A stretch of 64,000 nt of DNA, from NCBI GenBank assembly GCA_965250195.1, contig OZ252295.1:2586887-2650886 (forward strand). Reading direction: 5' to 3'. This DNA is from Dehalococcoidia bacterium. Its GTDB lineage: Bacteria > Chloroflexota > Dehalococcoidia > Lucifugimonadales > UBA2962. Both the position numbers and the translations under genes were made by a program. Positions 4,552-55,528 of this stretch are shown one piece after another (within the stretch, counting starts at the first letter, position 1; the number at the start of each line of letters is the position of its first letter). The notes under the pieces are model-generated. The model did not search any database. It was not told the origin of the DNA and worked only from the letters and a program-made list of their open reading frames with translations.

Positions 4552-4559
4552 AGGCTCAC

Positions 4560-5615: not shown

Positions 5616-5669
5616 CCCGGGTTTTTGTTGACTCAGCCCGGGTTTTTGTTCACTTAGCAGGAGGAGAGA

Positions 5670-6725
5670 TTGGCCAAGTCGGAGCGCAGCGGAAAAATTC
5701 AGACGGTCCTGGGGCTGATAGAGCCTGAGGCCCTTGGCACCACCGTCACGCACGAGCACGCACTGATCGACCTGTCGTGCTATTTCACGATGCCGGAAGA
5801 GGCCACGGAGCGCTGGTACATAGACGCCCCGTTGACCATGGATATACGGGGAAACATTGGCAAGCGCTGGGCTCACAACAAGGACGTGCAGCTATTGATC
5901 GACGAGAAGGTGCAGACGGAGGAGATTTACAAGTTCTATCTCGCCGGCGGCCAGTCGATTGTGGACACGACGTCCATCGGCATCGGCCGCGACCCGCTGG
6001 CCCTGGCGCGCATGTCCAGGGCGACGGGCCTCAACCTGGTATTGGGCTCTTCGTTCTACGTCCCGGTTTCCTACCCGGCCGATATCGACGACCGCTCGGA
6101 GCAGGACATCACCGATCTGATCATCCACGACGTGACGGTTGGGGTTAAGGACACGGGGATAAGGGTAGGCATCATCGGCGAGGTGGGCAACTTTTGGCCC
6201 ACTATCGAGACGTCACGAAAGATTCTGCGGGCGTCTGCACAGGCGTCGAAAGAGACCGGGGCGCCGATTCTCATTCACCCCGGCTTCCACCCCGACGCGC
6301 TGCTGCACCATATGAACGACCTGATCGAGGCGGGGGCCGACCCCACCCGCATCATCATGGGCCACCAGGACACGGCCAAGCTTGACGTAGTCAGAGAGGT
6401 GGCAGAGACCGGCGCCTACATTGAGCACGATATCTTCGGCTCGGAGGACACGGTCTGGGGCGCGGTCGCCGGCCAACAAATCGCCATTCCCACGGACGTT
6501 CAGCGCATGCAGCGGCTGGAGCAGCTTATGACGTGGGGCTACGAGGACAGGCTCGTGATCGCCCAGGACATTTGCTTTAAGACGGGCCTCACCCGCTACG
6601 GCGGCAAGGGCTACGCGCACATCGTCGAGAGTATCGTGCCCAGGATGCGCAGACGCGGGTTCTCGCAGCAAAACATCGACAACATCCTGATTGAAAACCC
6701 GAAGCGCATTCTAACCTTCGAATAG
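5670..6725 (+). CDS. phosphotriesterase-related protein, tandem paralog 3
   Basis: THEHALIDL, GIIGEVG, IHPG, MGHQD, AQDIC. TTG start 5 nt after AGGAGG. Confidence 0.85.
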   Translation: MAKSERSGKIQTVLGLIEPEALGTTVTHEHALIDLSCYFTMPEEATERWYIDAPLTMDIRGNIGKRWAHNKDVQLLIDEKVQTEEIYKFYLAGGQSIVDTTSIGIGRDPLALARMSRATGLNLVLGSSFYVPVSYPADIDDRSEQDITDLIIHDVTVGVKDTGIRVGIIGEVGNFWPTIETSRKILRASAQASKETGAPILIHPGFHPDALLHHMNDLIEAGADPTRIIMGHQDTAKLDVVREVAETGAYIEHDIFGSEDTVWGAVAGQQIAIPTDVQRMQRLEQLMTWGYEDRLVIAQDICFKTGLTRYGGKGYAHIVESIVPRMRRRGFSQQNIDNILIENPKRILTFE

Positions 6726-6734
6726 GAGGCCGCG

Positions 6735-7793
6735 CTGCCCAAGTCCGAGCGCAGCGGGAAGATCCAGACGGTTCTCGGGCTGATCGAGCCCGACCGGCTC
6801 GGTGTGACCATTACCCACGAGCACGCCCTCATCGACCTGTCGCCCTTCTTCGTGATGCCCGAGGAGGCGTCGGAACGCTCGTACATCGACAGGCCGTTCG
6901 CCATGGACATTCGGGGCAATATCGGCAGGCGCTGGTCGCACAACCGGGACATCCAGCGACTCGTGGACGAGCGCGTCCAGACCGAGGAGGTGCATAAGTA
7001 CTTCCTCGCCGGCGGCCGGTCCATGGTCGACACCACGAGCCTGGGCATAGGTCGAGACCCTTCGGCTCTCGCCCGTACCTCAAGGGCCACCGGGCTTAAC
7101 ATCGTGATGGGCGGCTCGCACTACATCCCGCTGGTACATCCACCCGACATGGAGGGGCGGTCTGAAGACGAGATCGTCGAGGAGATCGTGCGGGATGTCA
7201 CGGTCGGTGTGAGGGACACCGGCATAAAGACCGGCATCATCGGCGAGATCGGCAACGTCTGGCCCACAACCGAGGCCTCGCGCAAGATCCTGCGCGCTTC
7301 GGCCCGCTCATCGGTCGAGACCGGCGCGCCGCTGCTCATCCACCCCGGCTTCCATCCCGACGCACCTCTGCATCACATCGACGATCTCGTTGGCGCCGGT
7401 GCGGACCCGTCGCGGATCGTCATGGCCCATCTCGACACCTTCGCCGACATGGGTCTCATAAGGGAGATCGCCGAGACTGGTGTCTATCTGGAGCACGACA
7501 TCCTAGGTTCCGAGGACTCGTTGTGGGGCTCGGTGGCCGACCAGCCCATCGCCGTGCTCACCGACGCGCAGCGCATGGACAGGCTGGAGCAGTTCATCGC
7601 CTGGGGATACGAGGACAGGCTGGTGATCTCCCACGACGTGTGCTTCAAGATCGGCCTTACACGCCTGGGCGGCAGGGGCTACGCGCACATCCTCGAATCC
7701 ATAGTCCCGCGTATGCAGCGTAGAGGTTTCTCGCAACGCAGCATCGACAAAATCCTGGTGGAAAACCCCAAACGGATTCTGACCTTCGAGTAA
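6735..7793 (+). CDS. phosphotriesterase-related protein, tandem paralog 4 (probable CTG start; first canonical start is GTG 6804)
   Basis: Same motif set. The 23 codons upstream of GTG 6804 encode LPKSERSGKIQTVLGLIEPDRLG, matching the paralog 3 N-terminus with mostly synonymous differences. AGGAGG lies 5 nt before CTG 6735. Confidence 0.75.
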   Translation: MPKSERSGKIQTVLGLIEPDRLGVTITHEHALIDLSPFFVMPEEASERSYIDRPFAMDIRGNIGRRWSHNRDIQRLVDERVQTEEVHKYFLAGGRSMVDTTSLGIGRDPSALARTSRATGLNIVMGGSHYIPLVHPPDMEGRSEDEIVEEIVRDVTVGVRDTGIKTGIIGEIGNVWPTTEASRKILRASARSSVETGAPLLIHPGFHPDAPLHHIDDLVGAGADPSRIVMAHLDTFADMGLIREIAETGVYLEHDILGSEDSLWGSVADQPIAVLTDAQRMDRLEQFIAWGYEDRLVISHDVCFKIGLTRLGGRGYAHILESIVPRMQRRGFSQRSIDKILVENPKRILTFE

Positions 7794-17611: not shown

Positions 17612-18343
17612 CTATCTGGCGGCGGCCGCTAGCTCGGCGTCGATGGCGTGACGGAAGACTTCGATGGGGCGGGCCCCCACGAGCCGTTTGCCGTTGATGA
17701 AAAATGTCGGGGTGCCGTCAGCGCCAAAGCGCTGACCGTTCTGGATGTCGCTGACGACGAGGTCGCGCTTGGATTCGTTCTCAAGACACTGGATGAAGGC
17801 CGGTACGTCGAGACCGAGCCCGGCCGCGATGGCGACGAGGGTGTCGGGCACGAGGGAATCGGGGGAACTGAACAGGGCCTCGTTGTAGTCCCAGAAACGA
17901 CCCTGGTCGTGGGCGCACTCGGCGGCGAGACTGGCCGTGAACGCCAGTGGATGTATTGAGGTGAGGGGGAAGTTGACGGCGACGTAACGGATGCGGTCGC
18001 CATATTCGTCCAGTAGCAACGGCAAGACCTGGCTGTGGTGACGACGGCAGAACGGGCACTCGTAGTCGGTCATTTCTACGATTGTCACAGGGGCATCGGC
18101 GCTGCCCAGCGTGGGACGTTCCGACAGGTCGAGGTCGAAGACGACCGGTTGGGCCGATTGGGCGAATTGGGCCTGGTCGCCAGTTTCCGGAGTTGTGTCC
18201 CCGCCGCCGTCGACGAAGGCCAGCGCGTAGCCGATGCCGCCGGCGAAGCCGACGACGAGCGCGACGACGACGAACATGGCGGTCCGGTAGGACTGGCTCT
18301 CAGTCGCCTTGTCGGCGGCGCGCCTGTGCGATTTTCGTGCCAC
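17612..18343 (-). CDS. DsbA-family thiol:disulfide oxidoreductase, membrane anchored
   Basis: N-terminal TM helix and a thioredoxin-fold CPFC active site (YECPFCRRHH). Confidence 0.8.
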   Translation of the reverse strand: MARKSHRRAADKATESQSYRTAMFVVVALVVGFAGGIGYALAFVDGGGDTTPETGDQAQFAQSAQPVVFDLDLSERPTLGSADAPVTIVEMTDYECPFCRRHHSQVLPLLLDEYGDRIRYVAVNFPLTSIHPLAFTASLAAECAHDQGRFWDYNEALFSSPDSLVPDTLVAIAAGLGLDVPAFIQCLENESKRDLVVSDIQNGQRFGADGTPTFFINGKRLVGARPIEVFRHAIDAELAAAAR

Positions 18344-18430: not shown

Positions 18431-18790
18431 TCAGGCCGTCGGCTTACCGGAAGTCTCGCCGTTGGTCAGGTCGCGCTCGAGCGAGGTGGCCAGGTCGCGC
18501 AGGTCGATGTCGCCGCCCTCCTCCAGCCGCCCCACCGGGACGGCCGGGAGGGTTGCCACGTGCAGGCCGCCCCGCACGCCCAGTTCGAGGGAGAAGCGGG
18601 CGATGGCGTCGTTGTCCGGCGCTCGCACGACGGAGATGAAGTCGTACTGGCCCAGAATGGCGTAGCAGCTCAGGACCTGGGTTTCCCCGACCGCGATGTC
18701 GTCCTGTATCTGCAAGACGTGGTCGGGGTCTTCGAGGGCCATTTCGCGGCCGCCCTGGGTCAGGGTCAGCAGCAGGATGTAGGTAGACAG
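18431..18790 (-). CDS. GYD-domain protein (start uncertain)
   Basis: GQYDFISVV core. The family N-terminus (STYILLLTLTQGG) lies upstream of the first ATG (18742). The only candidate start there is CTG 18790, after GGAGAA. Confidence 0.55.
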   Translation of the reverse strand: MSTYILLLTLTQGGREMALEDPDHVLQIQDDIAVGETQVLSCYAILGQYDFISVVRAPDNDAIARFSLELGVRGGLHVATLPAVPVGRLEEGGDIDLRDLATSLERDLTNGETSGKPTA

Positions 18791-20970: not shown

Positions 20971-22695
20971 CTATCGAGGCTTGCGCCACTCGACGATGGC
21001 CAGCGTGGCGATGGGGTCGCTGGAGTCACCCGCAAGGGCAGGATCAACGGCGATCAACGCCACGGAAAACTTGCCGATCCTCTTCACCGAAGGCAATGTC
21101 TGGTCGCCCCGCAGGATGAGTGTGGTGGTCCCAAATTCGAAGTCCAACTGGCGCATGAGGACGACTATCTCCACCTGGCCGGGGTCGTCGCAGGGAACGC
21201 CGGAGGCACAGCGGGTGTCGGAGACGACCTCGATGAACTCTGCACCGAGCCCGGTCGAAAGACTGGGGCTAACCACAAGTTCGCCTATGTGCAGCCTGAC
21301 CGGCTGGCCGGTCGGGACCTGGTTGGCATCCCCGCTACCAATGGCGTCGATGGGAGCCTCCAGCGGGCCTTCGAAAAGGTCTATGACGACGGCGTCGGGG
21401 TCGGGCGTGGGCTCAGGGGTGGGTTCCACGAATCCGACCGGGGTCGGCAACTGGGGGTCGGCGGTGCCGGTGCGCACGGACGCTGCAACCTCGGCACCGA
21501 TACCGATGGAGAAGATCTCGGCCTTGGCCAGTATGCCCTCGGCCCCGTTGCCGCCCATGATGATGATGCGACCGTCCTGCAATAGCTCGCCGAGGTGGCG
21601 GTAGCGACCGATCTGCAGGTCGCCCGCCTTTGACCAGGTATTGGTGGCCGGGTCCCAGACCTCTATGGAGGTGCGGCTGCCCGTCCCACCGGCGACGAGA
21701 ACCCGCCCGTCGGGCATGAGCAGGGCCGCGTGTTCGGACCGGGGTTCGATCATGTCGGCTAGCTCGCCCCAGCTATTGTCGGCCGGGTCGTATATTTCCG
21801 AGGTCTGGCGCTTGCCCCTGCCGCCGACGACGAGAACGCGGCCATCTTTTAGCAAGGTCGCCGTGTGTTGGGTCCGGCCGATGGTCATGTCTCCGGCGGA
21901 GAACCACTCGTTGGCGGCCGGGTCGAAGATTTCGGTGTTTTTGATGTAGGGGCCGTCGGGGTCGCCGCCGCCCACGATCAGCACCCGGCCGTCGCTGAGG
22001 AGCGTGCCAGTGTGCCAGATGCGGTCGGTGGACATGCCGCCGACCAGGGTCCAGGTATTCAAAGCAGGATCATAGACCTCAGCTATGGCGGTCGGGGCGT
22101 AGTCCCGGTCCGATCCCCCGGTCACGATTACCCGGCCGTCGTCCATGACGACCATGGGAAAGGACTCGTGGGCGACGTTCATTGTCGCCACGGCCGTCCA
22201 CTTGCCGGTGGCCGGGTCCCAGATCTCGGCATGGTTGGTGCCGGTGTTTTTTATGTCCCGACCTCCGGCCGACAGCACGCTGCCGTCTTTTAGCACGGCC
22301 ATTGTGTGGGAAAAGCGCTCGTCGACCATGTCGTCGATGAACTCCCAGACCTCCGGTCCCGGTGTCCACAATTCCGCTGTCTTTACCGCGCCCGCGGCGA
22401 ACTGGGGCTGGTTGCCGCCGGTGACCAGGACGCGCCCGTCGGGCAGCGCCACGGAGGCGGAGCGCATGCGCTGGGCCCGCAGGTCGTCTATCAGCACGGA
22501 GGTGCCGGAGTCCGAAGCTACGCCGCTCGCCACGGATTCGGAACCGCCCGAACTTGTGTCGGTGTCGATCGCGGTGTCGGACGCACCGGAGCTGCTGCAA
22601 GCGGCGGCCACGAGGCCGACGGCTACCAGGATCATTCCGATAAGCAAGAGCCTCTTCACCGATGCACCTCCACCGAGCCGTGCGTGACTGGTCAT
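20971..22695 (-). CDS. Kelch-repeat beta-propeller lipoprotein with extra C-terminal domain
   Basis: Lipobox (LVAAAC). At least 7 repeats of the DGRVL(V/I)(T/V)GG...E(I/V)(Y/W)DPxxxxW type. About 170-aa unrelated C-terminus. Confidence 0.75.
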   Translation of the reverse strand: MTSHARLGGGASVKRLLLIGMILVAVGLVAAACSSSGASDTAIDTDTSSGGSESVASGVASDSGTSVLIDDLRAQRMRSASVALPDGRVLVTGGNQPQFAAGAVKTAELWTPGPEVWEFIDDMVDERFSHTMAVLKDGSVLSAGGRDIKNTGTNHAEIWDPATGKWTAVATMNVAHESFPMVVMDDGRVIVTGGSDRDYAPTAIAEVYDPALNTWTLVGGMSTDRIWHTGTLLSDGRVLIVGGGDPDGPYIKNTEIFDPAANEWFSAGDMTIGRTQHTATLLKDGRVLVVGGRGKRQTSEIYDPADNSWGELADMIEPRSEHAALLMPDGRVLVAGGTGSRTSIEVWDPATNTWSKAGDLQIGRYRHLGELLQDGRIIIMGGNGAEGILAKAEIFSIGIGAEVAASVRTGTADPQLPTPVGFVEPTPEPTPDPDAVVIDLFEGPLEAPIDAIGSGDANQVPTGQPVRLHIGELVVSPSLSTGLGAEFIEVVSDTRCASGVPCDDPGQVEIVVLMRQLDFEFGTTTLILRGDQTLPSVKRIGKFSVALIAVDPALAGDSSDPIATLAIVEWRKPR

Positions 22696-22786
22696 CTGGG
22701 AATCTTACCCGCATTCACCTTTGCACTGCCGATCTCATTTCCGCCTAGAATGGCGCCATCTCCAGATTCATGAGGCCGGAGGGACT

Positions 22787-23338
22787 ATGCGGGACTACCT
22801 GAAGCTACTACCGGTGTTATTGGCGCTGCCCGTGATCGCGCTACTGGCGGTCGGCTGTACGGGACAGTCGCCTGCCTCAGACGTCGGCGATTCCGCTCAA
22901 CCCACGGCTTCACCCATCCCCGGCCGCCCGAGCACGGCCGCGACCGCCGAGGCGGTGCGAAAATCGTCGGCGGGCGATTGCGAGATCGGGGCGGGCGCCC
23001 AGTGCGAGGGGGCCGACTTTGAGGGCAAGGACCTGGCCGCCGAGCAGATACACATGGGTCTGGGCGAAGGTGTGGACCTCAGTGGGGCGAACCTGAGATT
23101 CGCCAACCTCAAGGGAGTGAACCTGCTACTGGCAGACCTTAGCGAAGCCGATCTCACCGGTGCGGACCTGACCGGCGCCAACCTCAATAACGTCAACTTC
23201 AAGGACGCCGTGCTGAGAGACGCCGACCTGACCGACGCGAACCTGTCCTGGGCGATTCTCAAGGACGCCGACATGGAGGGCGCGATTATGTGCAACACGC
23301 TGATGCCGGACGGCGGCACCGCGAACTCCGGGTGTTAG
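22787..23338 (+). CDS. pentapeptide-repeat lipoprotein, paralog 1
   Basis: ATG 22787 after GGAGGG. Lipobox LAVGC. Run of A(D/N)LxG/ADLxx pentapeptides. Conserved CEGADFEG and C-terminal CNTLMPDGGTANSGC. Confidence 0.75.
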   Translation: MRDYLKLLPVLLALPVIALLAVGCTGQSPASDVGDSAQPTASPIPGRPSTAATAEAVRKSSAGDCEIGAGAQCEGADFEGKDLAAEQIHMGLGEGVDLSGANLRFANLKGVNLLLADLSEADLTGADLTGANLNNVNFKDAVLRDADLTDANLSWAILKDADMEGAIMCNTLMPDGGTANSGC

Positions 23339-23350
23339 GCCTGCGCTAAC

Positions 23351-24523
23351 TCAGGGGGTAAATATCTCGGTGGTCGGCGTGATCCGATCTTCGCTCAACC
23401 CACCGATGACCATGACCTGCCCGGAAGCCAGATTCAGCGCGGTAAAACGGTAACGAGTTTCGGACATGGTGTCGGCGGCGGACCAGGTGTTGGTCACCGG
23501 ATCGTAAAGCTCGGCGGTGGCGATGCGGCCGATGCCACCGGCCACCAGGATACGCCCGTCGGACAGCAGCACGGCCTGGTGCTCGGAGCGCGGGTCGACG
23601 GTGTCCCCTGCTGAGGACCAGGTGCCGGCGGCCGGATCGTAAACCTCGGCGGATTTCTTTTTGCCCTTGCCGCCCACTACCAGCACGCGACCGTCGGCTA
23701 GTAGCGTCGCGGAGTGGAACGCCCGGCTCACAGCCATCGAACCCGTCGCTTCATATGACCCGGTGGCGGGGTCGTAAATCTCGGCGGTCTTCAGGTGCGG
23801 GCCGTCCAGCTTGCCACCGCCGACTACCAGCACGCGACCGTCGGCTAGAAGAGTGGCGGTGTGGTTGGAGCGGACCTCGACTGTCTCTCCCGCCTCTGCC
23901 CAGACGCCTTCGACCGGGTCGTAGGTCTCGGACATTGGGAGCTGGCGCAGGAGCAGGTTACGACCCCCTACGACGAGGACTTTCCCGTCGTTGAGCAGAA
24001 TGGCACGGTGGCCCTCCCGGGCCTCGACCGGATCGCTGGTGGGCGTCCAGATGCCGGTGGCCGGGTCGAAGATTTCGGGGCCTCCGGGCAGCTCTTTCAG
24101 ACGGTTGATGCCGCCCGCTACGAGGACACGACCGTCCCCCAGCAACGTGGCCGAGGCGGCCTCGCGTTCCAGTGCCATCGTGCCCGCTGACGTCCAGGTC
24201 GCGGTCGCAGGGTCATAGATTTCCGCGTTGTCGTGGACGGTGGCGTACCGGCCCAGGCCCTTGCCACGCCCGCCAATGACCAGCAATCGGCCGTCGGCCA
24301 GGACAACACCGACGGGGAAGACGCGCTCGACGGCCATCTCCTCGCCGTACTCGAAGAGGCCCGGCCCGGATGGAGCAACCTCTGCCACGGCCTCGGTGAC
24401 GGTGTCTTCGCTCTCCGGCACCGCGTCGGAGATGTCTCTGGCGGCGGGGACGGAGTCTGCTCCGCAGGCCAGCGCCAAGAACGTCAAAACGGGCAGCGCT
24501 AGTAACAGGCTTCGGCGGAGCAT
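23351..24523 (-). CDS. Kelch-repeat beta-propeller lipoprotein
   Basis: Start at MLRRSLLLALPVLTFLALAC (lipobox). Six to seven DGRVLVVGG / EIYDP repeats. Confidence 0.75.
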   Translation of the reverse strand: MLRRSLLLALPVLTFLALACGADSVPAARDISDAVPESEDTVTEAVAEVAPSGPGLFEYGEEMAVERVFPVGVVLADGRLLVIGGRGKGLGRYATVHDNAEIYDPATATWTSAGTMALEREAASATLLGDGRVLVAGGINRLKELPGGPEIFDPATGIWTPTSDPVEAREGHRAILLNDGKVLVVGGRNLLLRQLPMSETYDPVEGVWAEAGETVEVRSNHTATLLADGRVLVVGGGKLDGPHLKTAEIYDPATGSYEATGSMAVSRAFHSATLLADGRVLVVGGKGKKKSAEVYDPAAGTWSSAGDTVDPRSEHQAVLLSDGRILVAGGIGRIATAELYDPVTNTWSAADTMSETRYRFTALNLASGQVMVIGGLSEDRITPTTEIFTP

Positions 24524-24712
24524 CACGGCCTCCTCTACTGCTTCGGGGCCTGGTCCAGCGACGAACTGACGCACACGCTGCCTGGCAGCGCCAAATAGGC
24601 TGCGACGGCTTCTGGGAGCGGATGCTATCAGATTGCCTCGTCGGCGGCCGTCGATTCGCCACACCGCTCCGACAAGAAGCTTTCCGCCGCATGGTGGTAC
24701 GATGCGCCAACT

Positions 24713-25597: not shown

Positions 25598-26143
25598 TTG
25601 GCGATCAGACACCTGAATTGGACCGGAGCACTCTTGCTCAGCATCGCGGCGCTGGCGCTGGCCGTCGCGTGCACGTCTACTCCGGCGACTTCCTCGGACG
25701 CCTCCTCACCTACTGCCATACCGGAGAGCGAGAGCGTGTTCGCCACCGCCGAGGCGCAGCGTAAATCGGCGGTGGGCGACTGCACTATCGAACCGGGGGC
25801 ACAGTGCGAGGGAGCCGACTTCGAGGGCATGGACCTGGCGGCGGAGCAGCTAGGGAATCACCTGCAAAAGGACGGCGTGGACCTGACGGGGGTCAATCTG
25901 CGGTCCGCGAACCTGCGCGGGGTCGACCTGTATCTGGCCGATCTTACGGATGCCGACCTGACGGGGGCGGACATGACGGGCGCCAATCTGAATAACGTGA
26001 ATTTTAAGAACGCCGTGCTAAGAAACGCCAACCTCAAGGACGCCAACCTGGCGTGGGCGAATCTGCGGGGCGCGGACCTGGAGGGCGCGCTCTACTGCAA
26101 CACGGCGATGCCGGACGGCAGCACCAAAAACGACGACTGCTGA
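25598..26143 (+). CDS. pentapeptide-repeat lipoprotein, paralog 2
   Basis: Lipobox LAVAC, CEGADFEG, pentapeptide run, C-terminal CNTAMPDGSTKNDDC. Confidence 0.75.
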   Translation: MAIRHLNWTGALLLSIAALALAVACTSTPATSSDASSPTAIPESESVFATAEAQRKSAVGDCTIEPGAQCEGADFEGMDLAAEQLGNHLQKDGVDLTGVNLRSANLRGVDLYLADLTDADLTGADMTGANLNNVNFKNAVLRNANLKDANLAWANLRGADLEGALYCNTAMPDGSTKNDDC

Positions 26144-26159: not shown

Positions 26160-27399
26160 CTACTCTTCGTCGGGCCTGTACGCGACCTCGCCGTGCTGTG
26201 AGTGGTCGAGGCCCTGCTCTTCTTCTTCTTCTTTGACCCTGAGCCCGATGGTGAACTTGAGAGCGAACAGGATGACGACGGTCATGCCGAAGGCCCAGCC
26301 CCAGGCGGCACCGATGGCCCCCAACTGACGCAGGATTTGCCCTCCCCTATCGACTCCCGGTAGCACCAAATCGGAGATGCCCAAGAACCCGATGCCCACA
26401 AAGAGCCCGGCGGCGAGCATCCCCCAAGTTCCGCCGACGCCGTGGACGGCGAAGACGTCGAGGGAGTCGTCCAGCCTGACCCTCTTGGCCAGCTTTACGG
26501 CGAAGAAGCAGAACGCACCGGCTCCTAACCCGATGACCAGGGCTGGCATGGGCCCGACGAACCCGGACGCGGGAGTGATGGTGGCCAGCCCCGCGACGGC
26601 GCCGGTGGCCAGACCGACGGCGCTGACTTTGCGGTTAATGGACCAGTCGAGCGCGCCCCAGGTGAGGGCGGCCATGGCGGCGGCGGTGTTGGTCACGACG
26701 AAGGCGTTGGTGGCGCTGCCACCGGAGACAAGAGCGCTACCGGCGTTGAAGCCGAACCATCCAAACCAGAGCAATGATGCACCGAGTATGACGAACGGGA
26801 TGTTGTGGGGCTCCATTGCTCGTTTGCCGTAGCCCAGCCTGCGGCCGAATATGATGGCAGCCGCCAGCGCGCCCGCACCGGAACTGACGTGCACGACGGC
26901 TCCACCGGCGAAGTCCAGCGCGCCCCATCCGTTGAGCCCCAACCAACCATCGACGCCCCAGACCCAGTGGGCGAGCGGCGCGTAGACGACAGTGGACCAG
27001 ATGACGGTGAACAGGACGAGGGTGCTGAACTTGATCCGCTCGGCGAAGGCCCCGGTAATGAGCGCTGGGGTGATGATGGCGAACATGGCCTTGAAGATCA
27101 TGAAGGCCTGGTGAGGGATGGTTGACGAGTACGGACCGGCCTCGGTTGCCGACACGTTCCGGAGACCCAAGTAATTGAGGTTGCCGATGAAGTGGCCGAC
27201 GTCCGGCCCGAAGGCCAGGGAGTAGCCCCATAGCACCCACACGACGCTGACGAGCGCGATCGCGACGAAGCTGTGCATCAGCGTGCCAGCGACGTTCTTG
27301 GAGCGAACGAGGCCGCCGTAGAAAAATGCCAACCCCGGGCACCATGAGCAGCACCAGCGCGGACGAGATGAGCACCCAGGCGGTGTCTCCACTATCCAT
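26160..27399 (-). pseudogene. amt: ammonium transporter Amt with a 1-nt frameshift near codon 23 (or a homopolymer assembly error)
   Basis: N-terminus MDSGDTAWVLISSALVLLMVPG is in the frame of ATG 27399. The rest (LAFFYGGLVRSKNV...) is in the frame of ORF 26160..27392. Deleting one C from CCCC 27333-27336 restores MVPGLAFFYGG. Confidence 0.8.
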
Positions 27400-27512: not shown

Positions 27513-27773
27513 CTACTCGCCCGGGGGTTCGTCCAACTGCCCGCGCAGGCTGGCTAGCCGCTCGGTCAGGACCTGTTTTTGTCGCACCAAGGCGTCCCGG
27601 TCGTAGGGGGTGTTGGCGAATTCCCAGGTCTTTGGATCGCTCAACCAACGTTCGACCATCTCGAGCCGGTGCTCGAAGTCCTTGATCGCATCGTCGATGG
27701 CGCGAGTGTCGCTCATGGCCTCAGATGAGCAAAAGGATACCTGATCGCGCTCCTCCGGCGTGGCCGGGCGCAT
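27513..27773 (-). CDS. hypothetical protein, start abuts the GrdB-like stop codon
   Basis: 86-aa ORF. Its ATG directly follows the TAG of the upstream gene (TAGATG). No motif recognised. Confidence 0.4.
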   Translation of the reverse strand: MRPATPEERDQVSFCSSEAMSDTRAIDDAIKDFEHRLEMVERWLSDPKTWEFANTPYDRDALVRQKQVLTERLASLRGQLDEPPGE

Positions 27774-28664
27774 CTATGTTGTGCGGATTCGACCCTCCGA
27801 CTTGCGTCTGGCCTGATTCTCCCGGCGCTCCCTACCCACCTGCCGCAACTTCTCGATGTTGGTCTCGTCGACCCGCATGTAGTTCTCTCGCCAATCGGAA
27901 CCGTGAGGCCAGACGAAGGGTGTCTGGACAGTGGTTCGCGGCGCTACCGCCTCGCTGAGCAGATCGATCGCCATTTCGAGCGTGGCGCGCTGCATTTCGC
28001 TGTCGTAGGGCACGCCCATGGGATTGCCCAGCGGGAAGTCCTGGAACAGGAACCGGGGCACGGCGCAGCGCTCAACGATGTCACGAGCCGAACCGATGAC
28101 GACGGTGGGGATGCCATTCGCCTCGAGATGCCTGGCCGTCAAACTGACGGACTGGTGGCAAACCGGTCAGATGGGGATGAGAACGGCGAGGTCGATCCTG
28201 TCCTGCCGACAAAGCCGTAGGACTTCGGGCGCATCTACTTCGCGGGTACGGCGCTGGCTGTAGCCGGTCGGCACGCCGTAGAAGCGCTCCGAGGCGCTGC
28301 CGATGCGGCCCGTCGAAGCGAGCGACCCGAGGGCGCGTATGGGCAGGAAGGTCTCGACGTCGCGGGTGTGGGTCGCCGCCTTGTCCCACGACAGGTCGGC
28401 CGTGTACATGGTGTCGGGCATGGGATTGGAGGGCGCGGCGTAGGCGACCTTGGGCGCCCGCAAGTCGGGGTCGGTTTCGGTCGTCTCACCGGGGTCAAGT
28501 GGAGTCGTGGTGGTCACGAGGCCGACCCTGCATTGTCTGAGCGGCTTTGGAAGAGCGGCGAAGGGCGCTTCGTCGTTGGCGGCCCATCGGTATGACCAAC
28601 GGTAGCCTTGCGCTGCGTAGTAGCGCCGTGATTTATCGACATAATCGACGGGCCGGTGGCTCAC
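27774..28664 (-). CDS. GrdB/PrdB-family (glycine/sarcosine/betaine/D-proline reductase selenoprotein B-like) protein, predicted selenoprotein with in-frame UGA
   Basis: ORFs 28167..28664 and 27774..28142 are in one frame, joined by TGA (28169-28167). Read-through gives ..DLAVLIPI-U-PVCHQSVSLTARHLEANGIPTVVIGSARDI.., i.e. a UxxC redox motif followed by a SECIS-like hairpin. Confidence 0.65.
28129..28160 (-). promoter_or_regulatory. candidate bacterial SECIS stem-loop
   Basis: RNA is UGCC-ACCAGU-CCGUCA-GUU-UGACGG-CCA-GGCA: a 4-bp lower stem, internal loop, 6-bp upper stem and GUU apical loop. The loop starts 22 nt after the UGA. Confidence 0.5.
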
Positions 28665-28823: not shown

Positions 28824-29348
28824 TCAGCAGCTCTCATTCGCGGTGCCTCCATCCGGCATCAATGTGTTGCACAGAATCGCCCCTTCCATGTCCGCGCCCC
28901 TCAAGTTCGTAAAGGAGAGGTTGGCGTTGGTCAGGTTTACGTTGCGTAGCACGGCGTCCTTAAAGTTGACGTTGTTCAGGTTGGCGTCCGTCAGATCTGC
29001 TCCGGTGAGGTCCGCACCTGTCAGGTCCGCGAGATAGAGATCGACGCCCTTCATGTTCGCCGACCGCAGGTTCGCCCCGGTCAGATCTAAGCCGTCATTT
29101 CGGTTATTCCCCAAGAACTCCGCTCCCAGGTCCACACCTTCCAGGTCGGCACCTTCACACTGAGCATTTGGCTCGATGGTGCAGTTGCCAGCAGCAGATT
29201 TGCGCTCGGCCTCAGCGGTGGCGAACACGGCCATGCTTTCTGCAACGACGGTGGGCGTCAGGACGTCGGAGGGCGATCCCGCACCAGACGCGCAGGCCAC
29301 CACTAGCATCGTCGCCAGCAGGGCCATCGTGGGAAACAGCTGTCGCAT
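28824..29348 (-). CDS. pentapeptide-repeat lipoprotein, paralog 3
   Basis: Start at MRQLFPTMALLATMLVVAC (lipobox), CEGADLEG, pentapeptide run, C-terminal CNTLMPDGGTANESC. Confidence 0.7.
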   Translation of the reverse strand: MRQLFPTMALLATMLVVACASGAGSPSDVLTPTVVAESMAVFATAEAERKSAAGNCTIEPNAQCEGADLEGVDLGAEFLGNNRNDGLDLTGANLRSANMKGVDLYLADLTGADLTGADLTDANLNNVNFKDAVLRNVNLTNANLSFTNLRGADMEGAILCNTLMPDGGTANESC

Positions 29349-29486
29349 GGGCGAAGTGTAGCTGGGATTATCGGCGAACGAATCGTGCTGGACCGCCAAA
29401 GCCGCGATAGTCGCCGCCAAAACCGACACGGCTTTTATTTTGGGAGTACGTGGCCTCGACTAAGGGCCACCCTGGCTTGACTGCAA

Positions 29487-45806: not shown

Positions 45807-46991
45807 TTAGGGCACGTACAGTTCGGTCTCGGAATACGCGCCGTCCGGGCCGGTGCCGCCGGTAATCAGCGCCCGGCCGTCGGCCAGTATCGTGACGATG
45901 TGTCGGTATCTCTCATCCAGCAAGTCGGGAGCCACCGTCCAGGTATCCAGCTCCGGATCGTAGATCTCCACCGAGCCGCCCACAGCCAGCCCACCGCTGA
46001 CCATCACCTGTCCGTCGGCTAACAGCACCGCCGAGTGTTCGGACCGTTTATTCGCCAGTTCCGAGACCGGAGAGAACGCGGAGGTCGCCGGGTCCCATAT
46101 CTCTCCCGAATTCTTTGCCTTGCCCTGACCACCGACCACTAGGACCCGGCCGTCAGACAACAGGGTGACCGTGTGCAGTATCCGGCCGACCGACATCTCT
46201 CCGGCGTCCGTCCACGTATCGCTCGCCGGATCGTAGAGTTCTGCTGACTCAAGGTACGGGCCATCCATTTTGCCCCCCCCGACCACCAGCACCCTGCCGT
46301 CCGTGAGCGTGACGGCGACGTGCCGCCTGCGCTTCTCGCTCATCGACGCGGCTTCGGCCCACACACCGGTCGCGGGGTCGTAAATCTCAGTCGAGGCCAG
46401 CGTGCTGAACAGCTCGATATCAAGGCCGCCGGTTACGAGGACGCGACCGTCGTCGAGCACCGCCCAGGCCTCGGTCTCCCGCGCCACCGACAACGAACCG
46501 GTCAGGGTCCAGGTATCGGTTGTCGGGTCCCACAATTCCGCCGTGAGGAAGGGATCCAGGGTCACGCCCACCCCTCCTGCCACCAGTACTGATCCGTTGG
46601 GGAGGGCGGCCACCACCATCTGCCTGCGGCCCTCGACAAGAGAGCCCGTCCTTGTCCACTCGCCGGTTGCCGGATCATAGATCTCGGTCGTGTCGTAAAC
46701 CGTCGCCCGGATGGCCCGGCCGCCCTTGCCCCGACCGCCGATGGCCATCACCCGGCCGTCGGGTAGCGTCACCAAGTTGTGGTAAAAGCGATCATCGTGC
46801 ATCTTACCGGTGCTGGTGAACTCGCCGATCGACCGTGTGAGCTTCGCCGGCTCGTCGGCGCTGTCTGCGTCGCCGCCGGCATCGACGGATGTTGAAGTGG
46901 CAGCAGGTGCGCTGCTGCAGGCGACCAGGGCCATCGCCGCAACCAGGGCCAGCACAAATAGGGCCGCGATAAAGAGAGTCCGACGGTGCAT
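45807..46991 (-). CDS. Kelch-repeat beta-propeller lipoprotein
   Basis: Lipobox MALVAC. Repeated DGRVL(V)(V/T)GG and E(I/L)YDP units. Confidence 0.75.
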   Translation of the reverse strand: MHRRTLFIAALFVLALVAAMALVACSSAPAATSTSVDAGGDADSADEPAKLTRSIGEFTSTGKMHDDRFYHNLVTLPDGRVMAIGGRGKGGRAIRATVYDTTEIYDPATGEWTRTGSLVEGRRQMVVAALPNGSVLVAGGVGVTLDPFLTAELWDPTTDTWTLTGSLSVARETEAWAVLDDGRVLVTGGLDIELFSTLASTEIYDPATGVWAEAASMSEKRRRHVAVTLTDGRVLVVGGGKMDGPYLESAELYDPASDTWTDAGEMSVGRILHTVTLLSDGRVLVVGGQGKAKNSGEIWDPATSAFSPVSELANKRSEHSAVLLADGQVMVSGGLAVGGSVEIYDPELDTWTVAPDLLDERYRHIVTILADGRALITGGTGPDGAYSETELYVP

Positions 46992-47255: not shown

Positions 47256-48488
47256 CTATATGGCACCCCGGCCCCTGAGGGCGGCCGCCTCGCCGGCGTC
47301 TATGCCCAGGACCTGGCCAAGTACCTCTTCTGTGTGTTCTGAGAGCAGGGGCGCCGCCGTGACCCGGACCACGTTGCCCTCAACCTTTATCGGGCAGCCG
47401 ATTCCCGTGTAGTCTCCCCGCACCGGGTCGCTTACATCGACCATCATCTCGCGCGCTCGCAGGTGCGGGTCGGTGAGCAGCTCGGCGGTGTCGCGTACCG
47501 CGCTGCACGGGATGCCGATGTCGCTCAGTTCGTCCATCACTTCGTATTTCGTTTTCGTTTTCGTCCAGCGCGACACGATTTCGGCGACCTCTTCCGGTCG
47601 CTCGGCCCTGGCCTGGTCGGTGGCGTAACGCTCGTCGCCGATCAGCTCGGGCCTGCCGGTGACGGCGAGCAGGGCGTCCCAGGCTTCTCCGCCAATGTTT
47701 ATGCTCACGTAGTCGTTTGGGCCGCCGCCCGAGCAGAGGTAGACGAAGTCGGGGATTCCCCAGATCCGGTTGCCGGTTCGCCGCACCGGCTCGCCCGCGG
47801 GCAGCGTCTCCACGTACCTGACCCGAATGAGGTTTAGCACCGCGTCCTGCATCGAGACCTCGACTTTCGGCGCGATACCGGTCTTATCGCGCTGCCGCAG
47901 GGCGGCGAGGATGCCGATGGCGCAGTGCAGCCCAGACCCCGAGTCTGCGATGCCGGACGAGGTAAAGACCGGTGGGCGGTCGGGGAAGCCGTTGGTGCTC
48001 ATCGCCCCCCCGGCCGCCTGTGCGACGTTCTCGTAGCTCTTGAGGTGCGCGTCAGGCCCGTAGGTTCCGAAGCCCTTTATGGACGCGACGACGAGGCGCG
48101 GGAACTCTTCTGACAACGTCTCGGGACCCAGCGCGAAGCTCTCCATGCGGCCGGGGGCGTAGTTCTCCACGACAACGTCGGACTCTGCGGCGAGACGTTT
48201 GAACAGGGACACGCCTTCCACAGACTTGAGGTTGACCGTGATGCCCCGCTTGTTGGCGTTGAAGACGAGGTAGTAGAAGCTGTCGACGTCCGGGCGGTCA
48301 GCCATCTCCCAGCGGGTTCTATCTCCCCGGCCCGGCTCCTCTATTTTGATGACGTCGGCCCCGAGCCATGCCAGTAGCTGGGTGCAGGACGGCCCTGCCT
48401 GCACCTGCGTAAGGTCGAGTATGCGTACGCCCTCTAACGGCCCGGTCCCCGAAGGCCTGGTCATTGGGGACTGTAGCTTCCTTTGCAT
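47256..48488 (-). CDS. CaiB/BaiF family III CoA-transferase (formyl-CoA transferase-like)
   Basis: N-terminal PLEGVRILDLTQVQAGPSCTQLLAWLGADVIKIEEP. Length 410 aa. Confidence 0.8.
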   Translation of the reverse strand: MQRKLQSPMTRPSGTGPLEGVRILDLTQVQAGPSCTQLLAWLGADVIKIEEPGRGDRTRWEMADRPDVDSFYYLVFNANKRGITVNLKSVEGVSLFKRLAAESDVVVENYAPGRMESFALGPETLSEEFPRLVVASIKGFGTYGPDAHLKSYENVAQAAGGAMSTNGFPDRPPVFTSSGIADSGSGLHCAIGILAALRQRDKTGIAPKVEVSMQDAVLNLIRVRYVETLPAGEPVRRTGNRIWGIPDFVYLCSGGGPNDYVSINIGGEAWDALLAVTGRPELIGDERYATDQARAERPEEVAEIVSRWTKTKTKYEVMDELSDIGIPCSAVRDTAELLTDPHLRAREMMVDVSDPVRGDYTGIGCPIKVEGNVVRVTAAPLLSEHTEEVLGQVLGIDAGEAAALRGRGAI

Positions 48489-48584
48489 GGCCCACCTCCG
48501 ATTGACGGGTTCGGCACGACTTGGGGGAAGTTTATGCGATTCCGCACGGCGAGCGGATTACGAAGGCTGGGGGATACCTAGATC

Positions 48585-48649
48585 GGCTCAGTTTCCCGCG
48601 CGGGGCCACACAGCCCCTAGAACGGGCCGCCCTGGCTCAACCGGCGGGG
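48585..48649 (+). repeat. array repeat R16 (last copy, next to the tRNA)
   Basis: GGCTCAGTTTCCCGCGCGGGGCCACACAGCCCCTAGAACGGGCCGCCCTGGCTCAACCGGCGGGG. Confidence 0.85.
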
Positions 48650-48812
48650 TCGAGTGTTCGGCTGTGAGGGCCCCACCTCAGTCGGATACAGCACAACTGG
48701 AAATGAGCCACCTGAGGGCGATAGGTGGGGCTAGGCGGGAAACCAGGGCCGATTGCCCTGTTTCACAACCTCATGCTATGACTGTCAAGCAGTCTATAGG
48801 CGAGAGGAGCGG

Positions 48813-48888
48813 TGGAGCCAACGAGCGGACTCGAACCGCTGACCTGCTGTTTACGAAACAGCTGCTCTACCGACTGAGCTACGTTGGC
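48813..48888 (-). tRNA. tRNA-Thr (anticodon CGU), CCA encoded
   Basis: Minus strand GCCAACG-TA-GCTC-AGTCGGTA-GAGC-A-GCTGT-TTCGTAA-ACAGC-AGGTC-AGCGG-TTCGAGT-CCGCT-CGTTGGC-T-CCA. All four stems pair, and U33 and A37 are present. Confidence 0.9.
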
Positions 48889-48894
48889 CTGCTC

Positions 48895-49404
48895 CTATGA
48901 TATCCGCCCCTCGTCGATCTTGCGCTGGAGATACGCGACGAATTCACCGTCGTATTTCGCCTGCACGTCCGGCCTGTTCCAGTCGCGTCCAGTGACTTTG
49001 CCACGGCAGTCGGTCGCACCACAGGCACACTCCCACTCCCAGTCATCGTCGTCCGTGGTGCCGTAGTCGAACGTCAACTCCTCCCCCTCGGCGATGGGGC
49101 GACGGGCCACGAAGATGACCTGACCCTGCACGGCCAGGTCGGGGTCGCAGGAGTGGTTGAGGTGCAACATCCCACCCTCCCGCTCCCCGTCGCTGGTCGG
49201 GCCCAGGAACAGGTCTTCGGCGATCTGTATCTCTGCTGGGCCGAGCTTCAATGACACCTCGTCGCGCTGATCCCGGTCCATCACATATCCACCTTTCACG
49301 CAGACGACCTCCCCCACCTCGATTGGGTCTGCCGTGAACAGCCCTCGGCCATGCACTCCACTGTCGCGCTTCTCTATCTTCGGCGAGAACCAACTGAGTT
49401 TCAT
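48895..49404 (-). CDS. SET-domain protein (putative lysine methyltransferase)
   Basis: NHSCDPD motif, ELTFDY, and a Cys-rich post-SET region (CACGATDCRG). Confidence 0.7.
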   Translation of the reverse strand: MKLSWFSPKIEKRDSGVHGRGLFTADPIEVGEVVCVKGGYVMDRDQRDEVSLKLGPAEIQIAEDLFLGPTSDGEREGGMLHLNHSCDPDLAVQGQVIFVARRPIAEGEELTFDYGTTDDDDWEWECACGATDCRGKVTGRDWNRPDVQAKYDGEFVAYLQRKIDEGRIS

Positions 49405-49436
49405 GACGGGATCACCATGTGGCGGTCAATTGCCTG

Positions 49437-50597
49437 CTAATGCCCCGTCGGGGCGTCGATGACGCGTTGGGCGATGATGTCGCGCATGATCTCTGAGGTT
49501 CCCGCGGCGATGGTCCATACCCGGTAGTCCCGGGCGAAGCGTTCAACGAATGTCTCTCGCATGTAGCCGTAACCACCGTGCAGTTGGACGGCGTCGTAGC
49601 CGACTTTCACAGCTGTCTCCGAGGCAACGAGTTTGGCCATCGAGACCTCTTTCGCACACTCTTTGCCCGCTGCGAACAGGTCCGCGGCATGGTACGTCAG
49701 ACCCTTCGCAGCCTCTATGCGCGTCGCCATGTCGGCGATCTTGTGCTGCAGGCCTTGTTTTGCGGCCAGTGGCCGACCAAACGCTTGACGTTGCTTGAGA
49801 TAGGCCTGGGTGTCTTCGAGCGCTCGTTCGGAGGCGGAGACGCACATGACTGCGACCATGAGGCGCTCGCGCTGCAGACCGGCGGCGAGCTGGTGGAACC
49901 CCCTGCCCTCCTCGCCCAAGAGGTCGGCGGCGGGTACCCGGACTCCGTCGAAGGTCAGCTCGGCGGTGTCGGAGGAGAGCATGCCGGTTTTGTCCATTTT
50001 CCGGGTGACGATGACGCCGGGCGTATCCCGCTGGACGAGAAATTGGGAGATGCCCCTGTGACGCTTATCTTCGCCAGGAGGTGCGGTCCGAGAGGCCACG
50101 AAGTACAGGTCGCCGTAGACGCCGTTGGTGGTGAAGGTCTTGGCGCCGGTGATGACCCAGTCATCTCCGTCGGGCACGGCTAGGGTCTCAATGCCGGCCA
50201 TGTCGGAGCCGGCGCCGGGCTCGGTGATGGCAAGGGCGCAGACGGTTTCGCCGTTGATGATGCCGGGTAAATAACGGGCCTTTTGGGCTTCGGTACCGAT
50301 GGCCGACAGCCAGGGCGACGACATGTCGGTGTGCACGATGACGGAGAAGGCAACGCCTCCGGCGCGGCAACGGGCAAGCTCTTCGGCCAGCACGACGGAC
50401 ATCCAAAAGTCGGCGCCGCCGCCACCGTATCGCTCGGGGTATTCGACTCCCAGGAAGCCCAGCTCACCCATCTGGCGAAACAGCGAACTGGGAATCTCGC
50501 CCTGCTCTTCCCATTCGTCGACGTTTGGGTCGATCTCCTCGCGCACGAAGCGGCGTACGGCGTCCCTGAAGATCTGGTGCTGGGCTGCAAAACTCAT
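49437..50597 (-). CDS. acyl-CoA dehydrogenase
   Basis: 386 aa. ACAD N-terminal, middle and C-terminal domain signatures (LAITEPGAGSD, GGYGY, TIAAGTSEI). Confidence 0.85.
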   Translation of the reverse strand: MSFAAQHQIFRDAVRRFVREEIDPNVDEWEEQGEIPSSLFRQMGELGFLGVEYPERYGGGGADFWMSVVLAEELARCRAGGVAFSVIVHTDMSSPWLSAIGTEAQKARYLPGIINGETVCALAITEPGAGSDMAGIETLAVPDGDDWVITGAKTFTTNGVYGDLYFVASRTAPPGEDKRHRGISQFLVQRDTPGVIVTRKMDKTGMLSSDTAELTFDGVRVPAADLLGEEGRGFHQLAAGLQRERLMVAVMCVSASERALEDTQAYLKQRQAFGRPLAAKQGLQHKIADMATRIEAAKGLTYHAADLFAAGKECAKEVSMAKLVASETAVKVGYDAVQLHGGYGYMRETFVERFARDYRVWTIAAGTSEIMRDIIAQRVIDAPTGH

Positions 50598-52237
50598 CGC
50601 GCTGGCCGGTCCCGACGGCGCAGTTCGTTGCGGCGTATTTTGCCGCTGACGGTCTTAGGGAGTTCATCGATGAACTCGATCTCCCTGGGGTATTTGTAGG
50701 GGGCCGTTGCCTCGCGCACATGGGCCTGCAACGTTTTTGCCAACTGATCGGACGGAGAGTTGCCCTGAGTCAGGGCGACGAAGGCCTTTACGATCTGGCC
50801 GCGAACGGGGTCGGGCTTGGCCACGACGGCTGCTTCGGCGACGGCCGGGTGCTCCATGAGCGCGGACTCGACTTCGAACGGCCCGATGCGGTACGAGGCA
50901 CTGATGATGAGGTCGTCGCCGCGGCCGAGGAACCAGAAGTAGCCGTCTTCGTCACGGGTGGCCAGGTCGCCGGTGAAGTACCAATCGCCCCTGAACGCTT
51001 TCGCGTTCGCCTCGGGGTCACGCCAGTAGCCCGGGAACAGACCAATTGGCCGCACTGGCGACGTGCGTGCGGCGATCTGGCCCACTTCGCCTGCGGGAAC
51101 CTCACGGCCGTCGTCATCCACTATGGCCAGATCGAATCCGGGGCAGGCAACGCCCATCGAGCCGGGTTTGTGTTGCATCCCTGGAAAAGTTGCCGCCATA
51201 AGGGTCGATTCGGTCTGGCCGTAGCCCTCCCAGATGTGCAGGCCGGTGCCCGCGCGCCAGGCGTCGATTACCTCGCCATCGACGGCCTCACCGGCGGCCA
51301 CGGTGTGGCGCAGCGCTCTGGGGCTGAATTTCGACAGGTCTTGCTGCACCATCATCCGGTAGGCCGTCGGCGGCGCGAAGAAGGTGGTGATGGGGAACTT
51401 TTCCAGGACGTCCAACGCAAGTGCGCCGTCGAAGCGGCTGCGCTGGTCCCAGATGAAGAGGGTCGCACCCATGTTCCAGGGCGCGAAGAAGGCGGTCCAC
51501 GCCGCCTGCGCCCAGCCGGTGTCGGCGAGGGTCCAGTGAAGATCGGTGGGCCGGTTGTCGAGCCAGAATTTTCCGGTGGCCACATGGCCTATCGGGTAGC
51601 TGGCGTGGGTGTTGAGCACCATTTTCGGGTTGCCCGTGGTGCCGGACGTGAAGTAGATCATCAGGGGATCTGTCGAAAGGTTGTTCGGGTGGGGCAGCTC
51701 CGGTGACGCGGCCGCCAACAGGTCTTCGAAACTGTTCGAGCCCTCTCCTCCTACGACGACGACGTCCCGCAAACTGGGGCACTCGCCCTTGACCGACTCC
51801 AGCTTCGAAAAGTTCTCGTGGTCGGTGATCGCCATTGACGCCTCTGACGCTCCGACTCGGTAGGCGATGTCCTTGGCCGTCAACAGCGTGGTGCCCGGCA
51901 CCGGCACGAGGCCCGCACGCATGCACCCGAGCACGATTTCCCACCATTCGACGACGCGGTGGAGCATAAGGAAGACGCGATCGCCCTTTTTCGCGCCCAG
52001 ACCGGTGAGGGCGTTGGCTACGCGCCTGGAACGCTCGGAAAACTCCCGGAACGTGACCTCACGGCAGGCCTGGCCGTCCGGCGCAAGCCAGATCATGGCC
52101 ACCTTTTCCGGGTCGTCGCCCCGGCGGTCGAAGACATCGAATGCCCAGTTGAATTTTTCCGGCACTTCCTGGCTGAAAGTGCGGTAGGTCTCGGCGTAGT
52201 CGCCGACCTGATAATTTTTTTGTTTTGCCGAGGTCAA
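50594..52237 (-). CDS. AMP-forming acyl-CoA synthetase (medium-chain type)
   Basis: YFTSGTTGNPK AMP-binding motif, GYGQTE, and C-terminal SGKIRR. 4-nt overlaps with both neighbouring genes. Confidence 0.85.
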   Translation of the reverse strand: MTSAKQKNYQVGDYAETYRTFSQEVPEKFNWAFDVFDRRGDDPEKVAMIWLAPDGQACREVTFREFSERSRRVANALTGLGAKKGDRVFLMLHRVVEWWEIVLGCMRAGLVPVPGTTLLTAKDIAYRVGASEASMAITDHENFSKLESVKGECPSLRDVVVVGGEGSNSFEDLLAAASPELPHPNNLSTDPLMIYFTSGTTGNPKMVLNTHASYPIGHVATGKFWLDNRPTDLHWTLADTGWAQAAWTAFFAPWNMGATLFIWDQRSRFDGALALDVLEKFPITTFFAPPTAYRMMVQQDLSKFSPRALRHTVAAGEAVDGEVIDAWRAGTGLHIWEGYGQTESTLMAATFPGMQHKPGSMGVACPGFDLAIVDDDGREVPAGEVGQIAARTSPVRPIGLFPGYWRDPEANAKAFRGDWYFTGDLATRDEDGYFWFLGRGDDLIISASYRIGPFEVESALMEHPAVAEAAVVAKPDPVRGQIVKAFVALTQGNSPSDQLAKTLQAHVREATAPYKYPREIEFIDELPKTVSGKIRRNELRRRDRPAR

Positions 52238-55439: not shown

Positions 55440-55528
55440 TTCGCTATCGGGCAAGACTTTCCTCCTCTTCGCCGGGGCGAGTTTACCACCCCCAACACTC
55501 TGCAAAGAGAACCTATAATGGCGACCCC

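Follow-up and report, generated by a model that had tools for sequence, protein, structure and literature searches.

The closest described relatives of the gene considered here were recorded in marine metagenomes. In Zhang, Fomenko & Gladyshev 2005 (PMC1088965), a family named 'Proline reductase PrdB', with a UXXC motif in which U denotes selenocysteine (Sec), accounts for 42 selenoprotein sequences from the Sargasso Sea; in Zhang & Gladyshev 2008 (PMC2398784), it is represented by 235 Sec-containing and 110 Cys-containing sequences of the GOS (Global Ocean Sampling) collection and is counted among the most abundant selenoprotein families. GrdB carries the motif U-x-x-C-x-x-C, as given in PMC13188914. 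Here we describe a related gene on the minus strand, at 27774..28664, of a 64,000-nucleotide (64-kb) stretch of contig OZ252295.1 from a Dehalococcoidia bacterium, referred to below as the window. The gene contains an in-frame UGA at 28169..28167, and our analysis indicates that this codon very probably encodes Sec and that the locus forms a single gene, whose predicted product is a 296-residue selenoprotein belonging to the GrdB/PrdB superfamily.

Two open reading frames (ORFs) of the minus strand, one of 165 aa at 28167..28664 and one of 122 aa at 27774..28142, lie in the same frame, and nothing but the TGA at 28169..28167 comes between them. This arrangement had been pointed out in an earlier note made from the DNA letters, and both its coordinates and its read-through translation agree with ours. 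Translation across the UGA yields ...RIDLAVLIPI-U-PVCHQSVSLTARHLEANGIPTVVIGSARDIVERC..., and the complete gene extends in a single frame from a GTG start at 28664 to a TAG stop at 27776..27774, with 296 codons that include one Sec codon. The predicted Sec is specified by codon 166 and forms residue 1 of a U-P-V-C-H-Q motif, where it is aligned with an invariant Cys. The N-terminal part (residues 1-165; 28170..28664) contains the family-specific motifs YxDKSRxYY, PYRWA and YSQR+T, and the C-terminal part (residues 167-296; 27777..28166) is translated only if the UGA is decoded. Relative to the orthologues at two other loci, L002 and L122, and to full-length Cys homologues, the gene is colinear and free of indels. 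In public databases, the window gene is stored as a 165-aa product (P0008, 99% identical) that ends at the UGA, in line with the expectation that standard gene callers would split or truncate it; P0008, P0030 and P0087 are three homologue hits of 165 residues that terminate exactly at this codon, and at L002 the orthologue's C-terminal half, of 122 residues, was annotated as an ORF of its own. Joined, the two ORFs again make up a conserved redox enzyme that is now public as a 165-residue fragment, and the same split-gene error probably affects TGA forms in many other metagenome-assembled genomes.

A Pfam scan of the read-through protein returned no match at E ≤ 0.1, PF07355 included. The best NCBIfam match was PrdB (TIGR04483; E = 1.2e-23), which aligned from position 19 to position 233 of a profile of 238 positions; its score of 83.8 bits did not reach the cut-off of 300. 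The GrdH and GrdB models of NCBIfam matched weakly over the C-terminal ~160 residues (E values of 6.7e-08 to 2e-03), TIGR01918 (GrdB) scoring 23.7 bits against a threshold of 65.45 bits; a few of the homologues do carry a precomputed PF07355 hit. The earlier assignment of the gene to the GrdB/PrdB family is supported at the level of the superfamily by the nearly full-length match to TIGR04483, with the caveat that PF07355 gave no match and the cut-offs were missed. Because of the missing PF07355 match and of NCBIfam scores far under the PrdB and GrdB cut-offs, we assign the window gene, on sequence, to a separate subfamily within the GrdB/PrdB superfamily.

Searching a large protein collection identified 3316 homologues, most of them 285-300 residues long. 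The UGA column is occupied by Cys in 53 aligned full-length homologues, within an invariant C-P-V-C-H-Q, and the segment downstream of the motif is strongly conserved, as seen in ARHLEANGIPTV, GSARDIVE and VPRFxFxDFPLGNP. Many homologues are named PrdB by JGI and NCBI, and in RefSeq relatives of the Cys form go by the name 'glycine/sarcosine/betaine reductase selenoprotein B family protein'. When the authentic PrdB of Peptoclostridium acidaminophilum (...FTAG-U-GTCHRS...) was aligned with the window protein (26% identity, E = 3e-19), its Sec fell on the window UGA, with TAG-U-GTCH opposite IPI-U-PVCH, and the Sec of the U-x-x-C motif thereby occupies the PrdB-homologous position; overall identity to authentic PrdB sequences is 24-29%. 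The claim that the UGA stands at the first position of a U-x-x-C motif is therefore borne out on both counts, by the Cys of the 53 full-length homologues and by the Sec of PrdB. Moreover, the Cys homologues do not end at the UGA position but continue to ~290 aa, and the downstream half is homologous to the same family.

The orthologues, 82% identical at L002 and 74% identical at L122, likewise span 296 codons, are colinear with the window gene and retain the TGA. The ratio of nonsynonymous to synonymous divergence (dN/dS) and the synonymous divergence itself (dS) were obtained as Nei-Gojobori estimates from the three pairwise comparisons among the window, L002 and L122. Upstream of the UGA, dN/dS was 0.14-0.19 with dS of 0.48-1.09; downstream, dN/dS was 0.11-0.20 with dS of 0.42-1.28. 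Both halves of the gene are under equal purifying selection, with synonymous sites heavily diverged. The distribution of the TGA form was determined by scanning one genome per species with the DNA pattern TGA-CCN-GTN-TGY-CAY-CAR followed by ...ARHLE, which located it at no fewer than 119 genome loci. The hosts belong to many phyla and include Acidimicrobiales and other Actinomycetota, Dehalococcoidia and other Chloroflexota, Alpha-, Gamma- and Deltaproteobacteria, Binatia, Myxococcota and Spirochaetales. Among metagenome relatives, 14 of 15 have TGA and one has TGC.

These data bear on two explanations in which the UGA is not decoded at all. The first attributes the TGA to faulty sequencing or to a nonsense mutation of recent date, which would make the gene an artefact or a pseudogene of a Cys-type homologue. 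This might be entertained because a probable homopolymer frameshift lies nearby, in an ammonium transporter gene with a GGGG run near 27331-27334, and because the nearest full-length database matches are Cys forms. However, independent assemblies with genes 82% and 74% identical carry the TGA as well, as do at least 119 genomes, the downstream dN/dS remains at 0.11-0.20 at dS values up to 1.28, and conversion of TGC or TGT to TGA requires a substitution rather than a homopolymer indel. We consider this explanation largely refuted and barely credible. According to the second, translation ends at the UGA to give a 165-aa protein, and the downstream part is untranslated or made separately from a TTG at 28142. 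Such a split would cut the invariant CPVCHQ and a single domain predicted with confidence (predicted local distance difference test [pLDDT] of 91), and it would divide a gene whose halves are under equal selection and whose Cys homologues are all single proteins of ~290 aa. Although gene callers yield exactly these two ORFs and the TTG is indeed present as a potential start, this triplet is a conserved Leu codon that lies within the hairpin described below. Termination at the UGA is thus extremely improbable, and we continue with Sec decoding of a single gene.

Downstream of the UGA, on the minus strand, a stem-loop resembling a selenocysteine insertion sequence (SECIS) spans 28129..28160. Its lower stem, UGCC/GGCA, pairs 28160-28157 with 28132-28129; its upper stem, CCGUCA/UGACGG, pairs 28150-28145 with 28141-28136; and the apical loop, GUU at 28144-28142, lies 22 nt after the UGA. 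The structure folds just as the earlier note had proposed. Bacterial SECIS (bSECIS) elements, according to PMC13188914, have a loop of 3-9 nt, an upper stem of 4-16 bp, a G in the first two loop positions, a UGA-to-loop distance of 16-37 nt and a minimum free energy of -7.5 kcal/mol or lower. With its 3-nt GUU loop, 6-bp stem, 22-nt spacing and energy of -12 kcal/mol, the window hairpin falls within all of these published constraints, and the bacterial SECIS geometry attributed to it therefore holds. The same hairpin is found unchanged in L002 and as a variant in L122.

Most family members form a hairpin in a register that we refer to as register A, ACCAGAC-CGUGA-GUCUGGU, which begins 13 nt after the UGA and places the loop G at +22. 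Across 121 sequences, 94.6% of cells were paired in this register compared to 23-32% with slid partners, and 48 double-sided changes were counted compared to 16.7 ± 2.9 in shuffles, with none of 500 shuffles reaching 48. Pair 21-37, which joins the third base of a His codon (CAC/CAT) to the first base of a Val or Ile codon, is CG in 67 sequences and UA in 29; pair 24-34, which joins the third base of a Gln codon (CAG/CAA) to the first base of a Leu codon (CTG/TTG), is GC in 103 and AU in 12, both changes being synonymous; and a third covarying pair is AU in 104 and UA in 6. Fisher tests of the covarying pairs, naive and uncorrected for phylogeny, gave p values of 1e-6 to 6e-13. Judged from the codons involved, these pairs occupy positions where protein coding cannot explain the linkage. 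At the conserved G-U, every codon has the form xGT, whether it specifies Ser, Gly or Cys, and the register A hairpin of locus L003 has an energy of -23.2 kcal/mol with z = -3.5. In nearly every sequence, columns 20-40 of the alignment (A2), which correspond to window positions 28156..28136, keep G-U at both loop positions.

The window, L002, L122 and some 14 others, mostly from Actinomycetota, do not form register A. These sequences pair 4-6 nt further on, in what we term register B, so that the loop G stands at +26, counted from the U of the UGA. Compensatory changes are present here as well: at pair 27-39, whose two bases are each the third of a codon, 11 sequences have GC and 3, those of the window clade, have CG, and pair 28-38 is GC in 8, GU in 6 and AU in 3. 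One orthologous family thus displays two overlapping SECIS registers, +22 and +26, the latter concentrated in Actinomycetota and the window clade.

In the mechanism that we envisage, SelB carrying Sec-tRNA(Sec) would bind the hairpin when the ribosome arrives at the UGA and would insert Sec. By analogy with PrdB and GrdB, the selenolate of Sec166 would attack either a bound substrate or a partner in the oxidised state, Cys169 would resolve the adduct to form a selenide-sulfide, and a thiol system of the thioredoxin or glutaredoxin type would then reduce this bond.

Several points weigh against Sec decoding. The stability of the window hairpin is no better than chance (z = -1.0 at -12 kcal/mol), as 33 of 200 shuffles fold equally well; the hairpin being unremarkable alone, the case rests on the comparison with relatives given above. 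The window hairpin is, in addition, a weaker and shifted variant that lies 4 nt farther from the UGA than the family's usual hairpin. For register B, the figure of 96% paired is inflated because the subset was picked by pairing, and the compensatory swaps are its informative part. DNAs of the Cys form keep 3-6 of the 7 register A pairs, in a small control of only 4 distinct sequences; a scan of the viral_contigs collection for Cys-form sequences that could extend this control found none. An Rfam scan gave no SECIS-type match at gathering thresholds or at E ≤ 10. With respect to the decoding machinery, NCBIfam scans of ~50 ORFs in the window gave no match to selA, selB or selD, and ARAGORN found no tRNA-Sec in the window, reporting tRNA-Thr only; SelD was likewise without a match in the window or the fetched loci by tblastn with an approximate E. 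coli query. Finally, the proposed chemistry is drawn entirely from the analogy with PrdB and GrdB, with neither a solved structure nor a fold neighbour to draw on.

The missing Sec machinery in the 64-kb window is also what would favor a reading of the UGA by a near-cognate or suppressor tRNA, inserting Trp or Cys, in place of the Sec system. We regard this as very unlikely. Non-specific read-through has no need of a hairpin, whereas in the family one follows the UGA and shows compensatory substitutions at its synonymous sites; the same site is Sec in authentic PrdB; and TGA serves as an ordinary stop in the window. Of the 57 predicted window ORFs that close with a stop codon, it terminates 15, among them the truncated N-terminal half of the present gene, and the genetic code is therefore the standard one. 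Reassignment of UGA in the genetic code was rejected on the same ground. Stop usage among these 57 ORFs is TAG 32, TGA 15 and TAA 10, which is rich in TAG despite a genome G+C content of 63%, at which TGA would usually dominate. Weighing these points together, we retain Sec as the very probable product of the UGA.

When the window was scanned mechanically for coding frames split by TGA, no further convincing selenoprotein emerged. The ORF at 17612..18343 (minus strand) matched the Rcas_1661 family thioredoxin-like (seleno)lipoprotein model (E = 8.7e-31, under the cut-off) and is a Cys form with CPFC; the TGA at 18433..18431, 90 nt upstream of it, is the stop of a GYD-domain gene.

The window protein was compared with the published marine sequences directly. 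'UPVCH' occurs 93 times in supplementary Dataset S1 of the GOS study, and the GOS read JCVI_READ_189537, labeled '#Proline reductase', shares 44% identity with the window protein (E = 3e-48), has its Sec aligned and carries the same N-terminal motifs. This identity, together with the shared U-PVCHQ, places the window gene in the known family. By these sequence features, the gene is a further member of the marine U-x-x-C selenoprotein family, of which the family itself, the Sec site and the motif were published in 2005 and 2008. Literature searches on 'PrdB-like' and on SAR202 with selenocysteine returned nothing useful.

Whether the family name describes its function is a separate matter. Several lines would favor a genuine PrdB subunit whose PrdA partner is encoded at another place in the genome: PrdB is the best NCBIfam match, JGI and NCBI call many homologues by this name, and the papers of 2005 and 2008 list the family as proline reductase. 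Nevertheless, the score of 83.8 bits against a cut-off of 300 and the identity of 24-29% to authentic PrdB are both low, the hosts belong to apparently aerobic heterotroph lineages, and gene context offers neither a PrdA nor any conserved neighbor. In the prd operon used as reference (L148), a small ORF separates prdA from the prdB downstream of it. With the PrdA of L148 as query, tblastn at E ≤ 1 gave no match in the window or across 1.14 Mb of DNA surrounding family members; neither prdA nor grdA was among the ~50 window ORFs scanned, and no grdE lay nearby. ORF clustering around the 119 Sec-form loci revealed no conserved neighbor: genes for enoyl-coenzyme A (CoA) hydratase, family-III CoA-transferase, short-chain dehydrogenase/reductase, acyl-CoA dehydrogenase and acyl-CoA ligase each occur at 13 or fewer of them. 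The contexts of Cys-form genes are equally variable. A genuine PrdB subunit is therefore unlikely, and the window protein is probably not a true D-proline reductase. We do not think that its substrate is D-proline, given the missed PrdB cut-off, the protein's own 296-aa architecture and motifs, and the lack of a PrdA nearby.

At 9 of the Sec-form loci, a gene for a small glutaredoxin (CAPC, PF00462) lies directly downstream on the same strand, for example in L075 at ~386 nt after the UGA. It is plausible that this glutaredoxin is the reductant for the U-x-x-C center in those lineages; the window has no such glutaredoxin gene.

No sequence relative of the window protein was found in the PDB. 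The AlphaFold model of its closest Cys homologue, P0001, has an alpha/beta fold with a pLDDT of 91.3, and a Foldseek search of the PDB with this model gave no match at E ≤ 0.001; the best weak matches were flavodoxin-like B12-binding domains with a template modeling (TM) score of about 0.3. We give roughly even chances to a broader proposal, namely that the 'PrdB' of marine and soil heterotrophs is a stand-alone selenoenzyme other than a proline reductase, with no pyruvoyl partner or solved structural relative, whose SECIS moved between registers +22 and +26 within the same coding sequence. If this is true, the family would be a natural experiment on the UGA-to-SECIS spacing that SelB tolerates. 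The name D-proline reductase, borne by a family that ranks among the marine selenoprotein families of greatest abundance, is supported neither by sequence scores nor by gene neighborhoods.

Around the selenoprotein gene, the window contains several features of separate interest. An 86-aa ORF at 27513..27773 (minus strand), with coding-like G+C content at third codon positions, has an ATG that abuts the TAG of the selenoprotein gene (TAGATG). A copy 84.5% identical to it stands right after the orthologue in L002 (L002 1019..1270); the ORF gave no Pfam or NCBIfam match, and no match at E ≤ 0.01 was found in L122 or the other fetched loci. It may be a co-translated, clade-specific partner of the selenoprotein. 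Further downstream is the ammonium transporter gene (26160..27399, minus strand), which is frameshifted near 27331-27334: the frame from the ATG at 27399 reads MDSGDTAWVLISSALVLLMVPG, and the GGGG run (CCCGGGGTTGGCA) moves the expected LAFFYGGLVRSKN to another frame, reflecting either a homopolymer sequencing error or a pseudogene.

On the other side, the same-strand neighbor at 28824..29429 (minus strand) encodes a pentapeptide-repeat lipoprotein. It is one of three paralogous lipoproteins of this kind that flank the locus, the others being at 22721..23338 and 25598..26143 (both plus strand). Their C-terminal tails are similar (NT[LA]MPDG...), each with a final Cys, and the genes are interleaved with those for Kelch/GlxA-like repeat proteins at 20971..22695, 23351..24664 and 45807..46991. 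Elsewhere in the window, four phosphotriesterase-related paralogues lie in tandem at 3499..7793 (plus strand), with a fifth copy at 54375..55604 (minus strand), and several CoA-transferase, acyl-CoA dehydrogenase and acyl-CoA ligase genes are found at 47256..53409. The expansion of phosphotriesterase and acyl-CoA gene paralogues fits a SAR202-like Chloroflexota genome. The window's gamma-glutamyltransferase has its named relatives in metagenome-assembled genomes of Chloroflexi and SAR202, which makes a marine member of the Chloroflexota the probable source.

Set against the known systems, the window protein is homologous to the PrdB of Peptostreptococcales (TIGR04483; Kabisch et al. 1999) over nearly the whole PrdB length, and the two share an aligned Sec in U-x-x-C-H followed by a similar E-x-x-G-I-P-T segment. 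The window protein differs in having 296 aa compared to ~240 aa, being ~55 residues longer with an extra conserved N-terminus, and in having YSQR+T where PrdB has GFMGGGG, while its gene has no adjacent prdA and lies outside a prd operon. The resemblance to GrdB, GrdF and GrdH (TIGR01918, PF07355) is a weak homology to the C-terminal ~160 residues. Compared to these proteins, the window protein is ~140 residues shorter and scores below every cut-off; its motif, U-P-V-C-H-Q-S, lacks the third Cys of GrdB, and no grdA or grdE lies nearby. With the E. coli fdhF SECIS and the bSECISearch consensus, the window hairpin shares its place right after the UGA, a small apical loop led by G-U, a spacing within 16-37 nt and an energy below -7.5 kcal/mol. 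It differs from the fdhF element, whose loop G we take to be at +23, in having the loop G at +26 (+22 in the family's main register) and in showing no sequence resemblance or Rfam match. The closest likeness is to the marine 'Proline reductase PrdB' family, abundant in marine metagenomes, with which the window gene shares U-PVCHQ, the N-terminal motifs and the pairing of Sec and Cys forms; from this family it differs in nothing of kind, the window copy being set apart by its shifted SECIS register.

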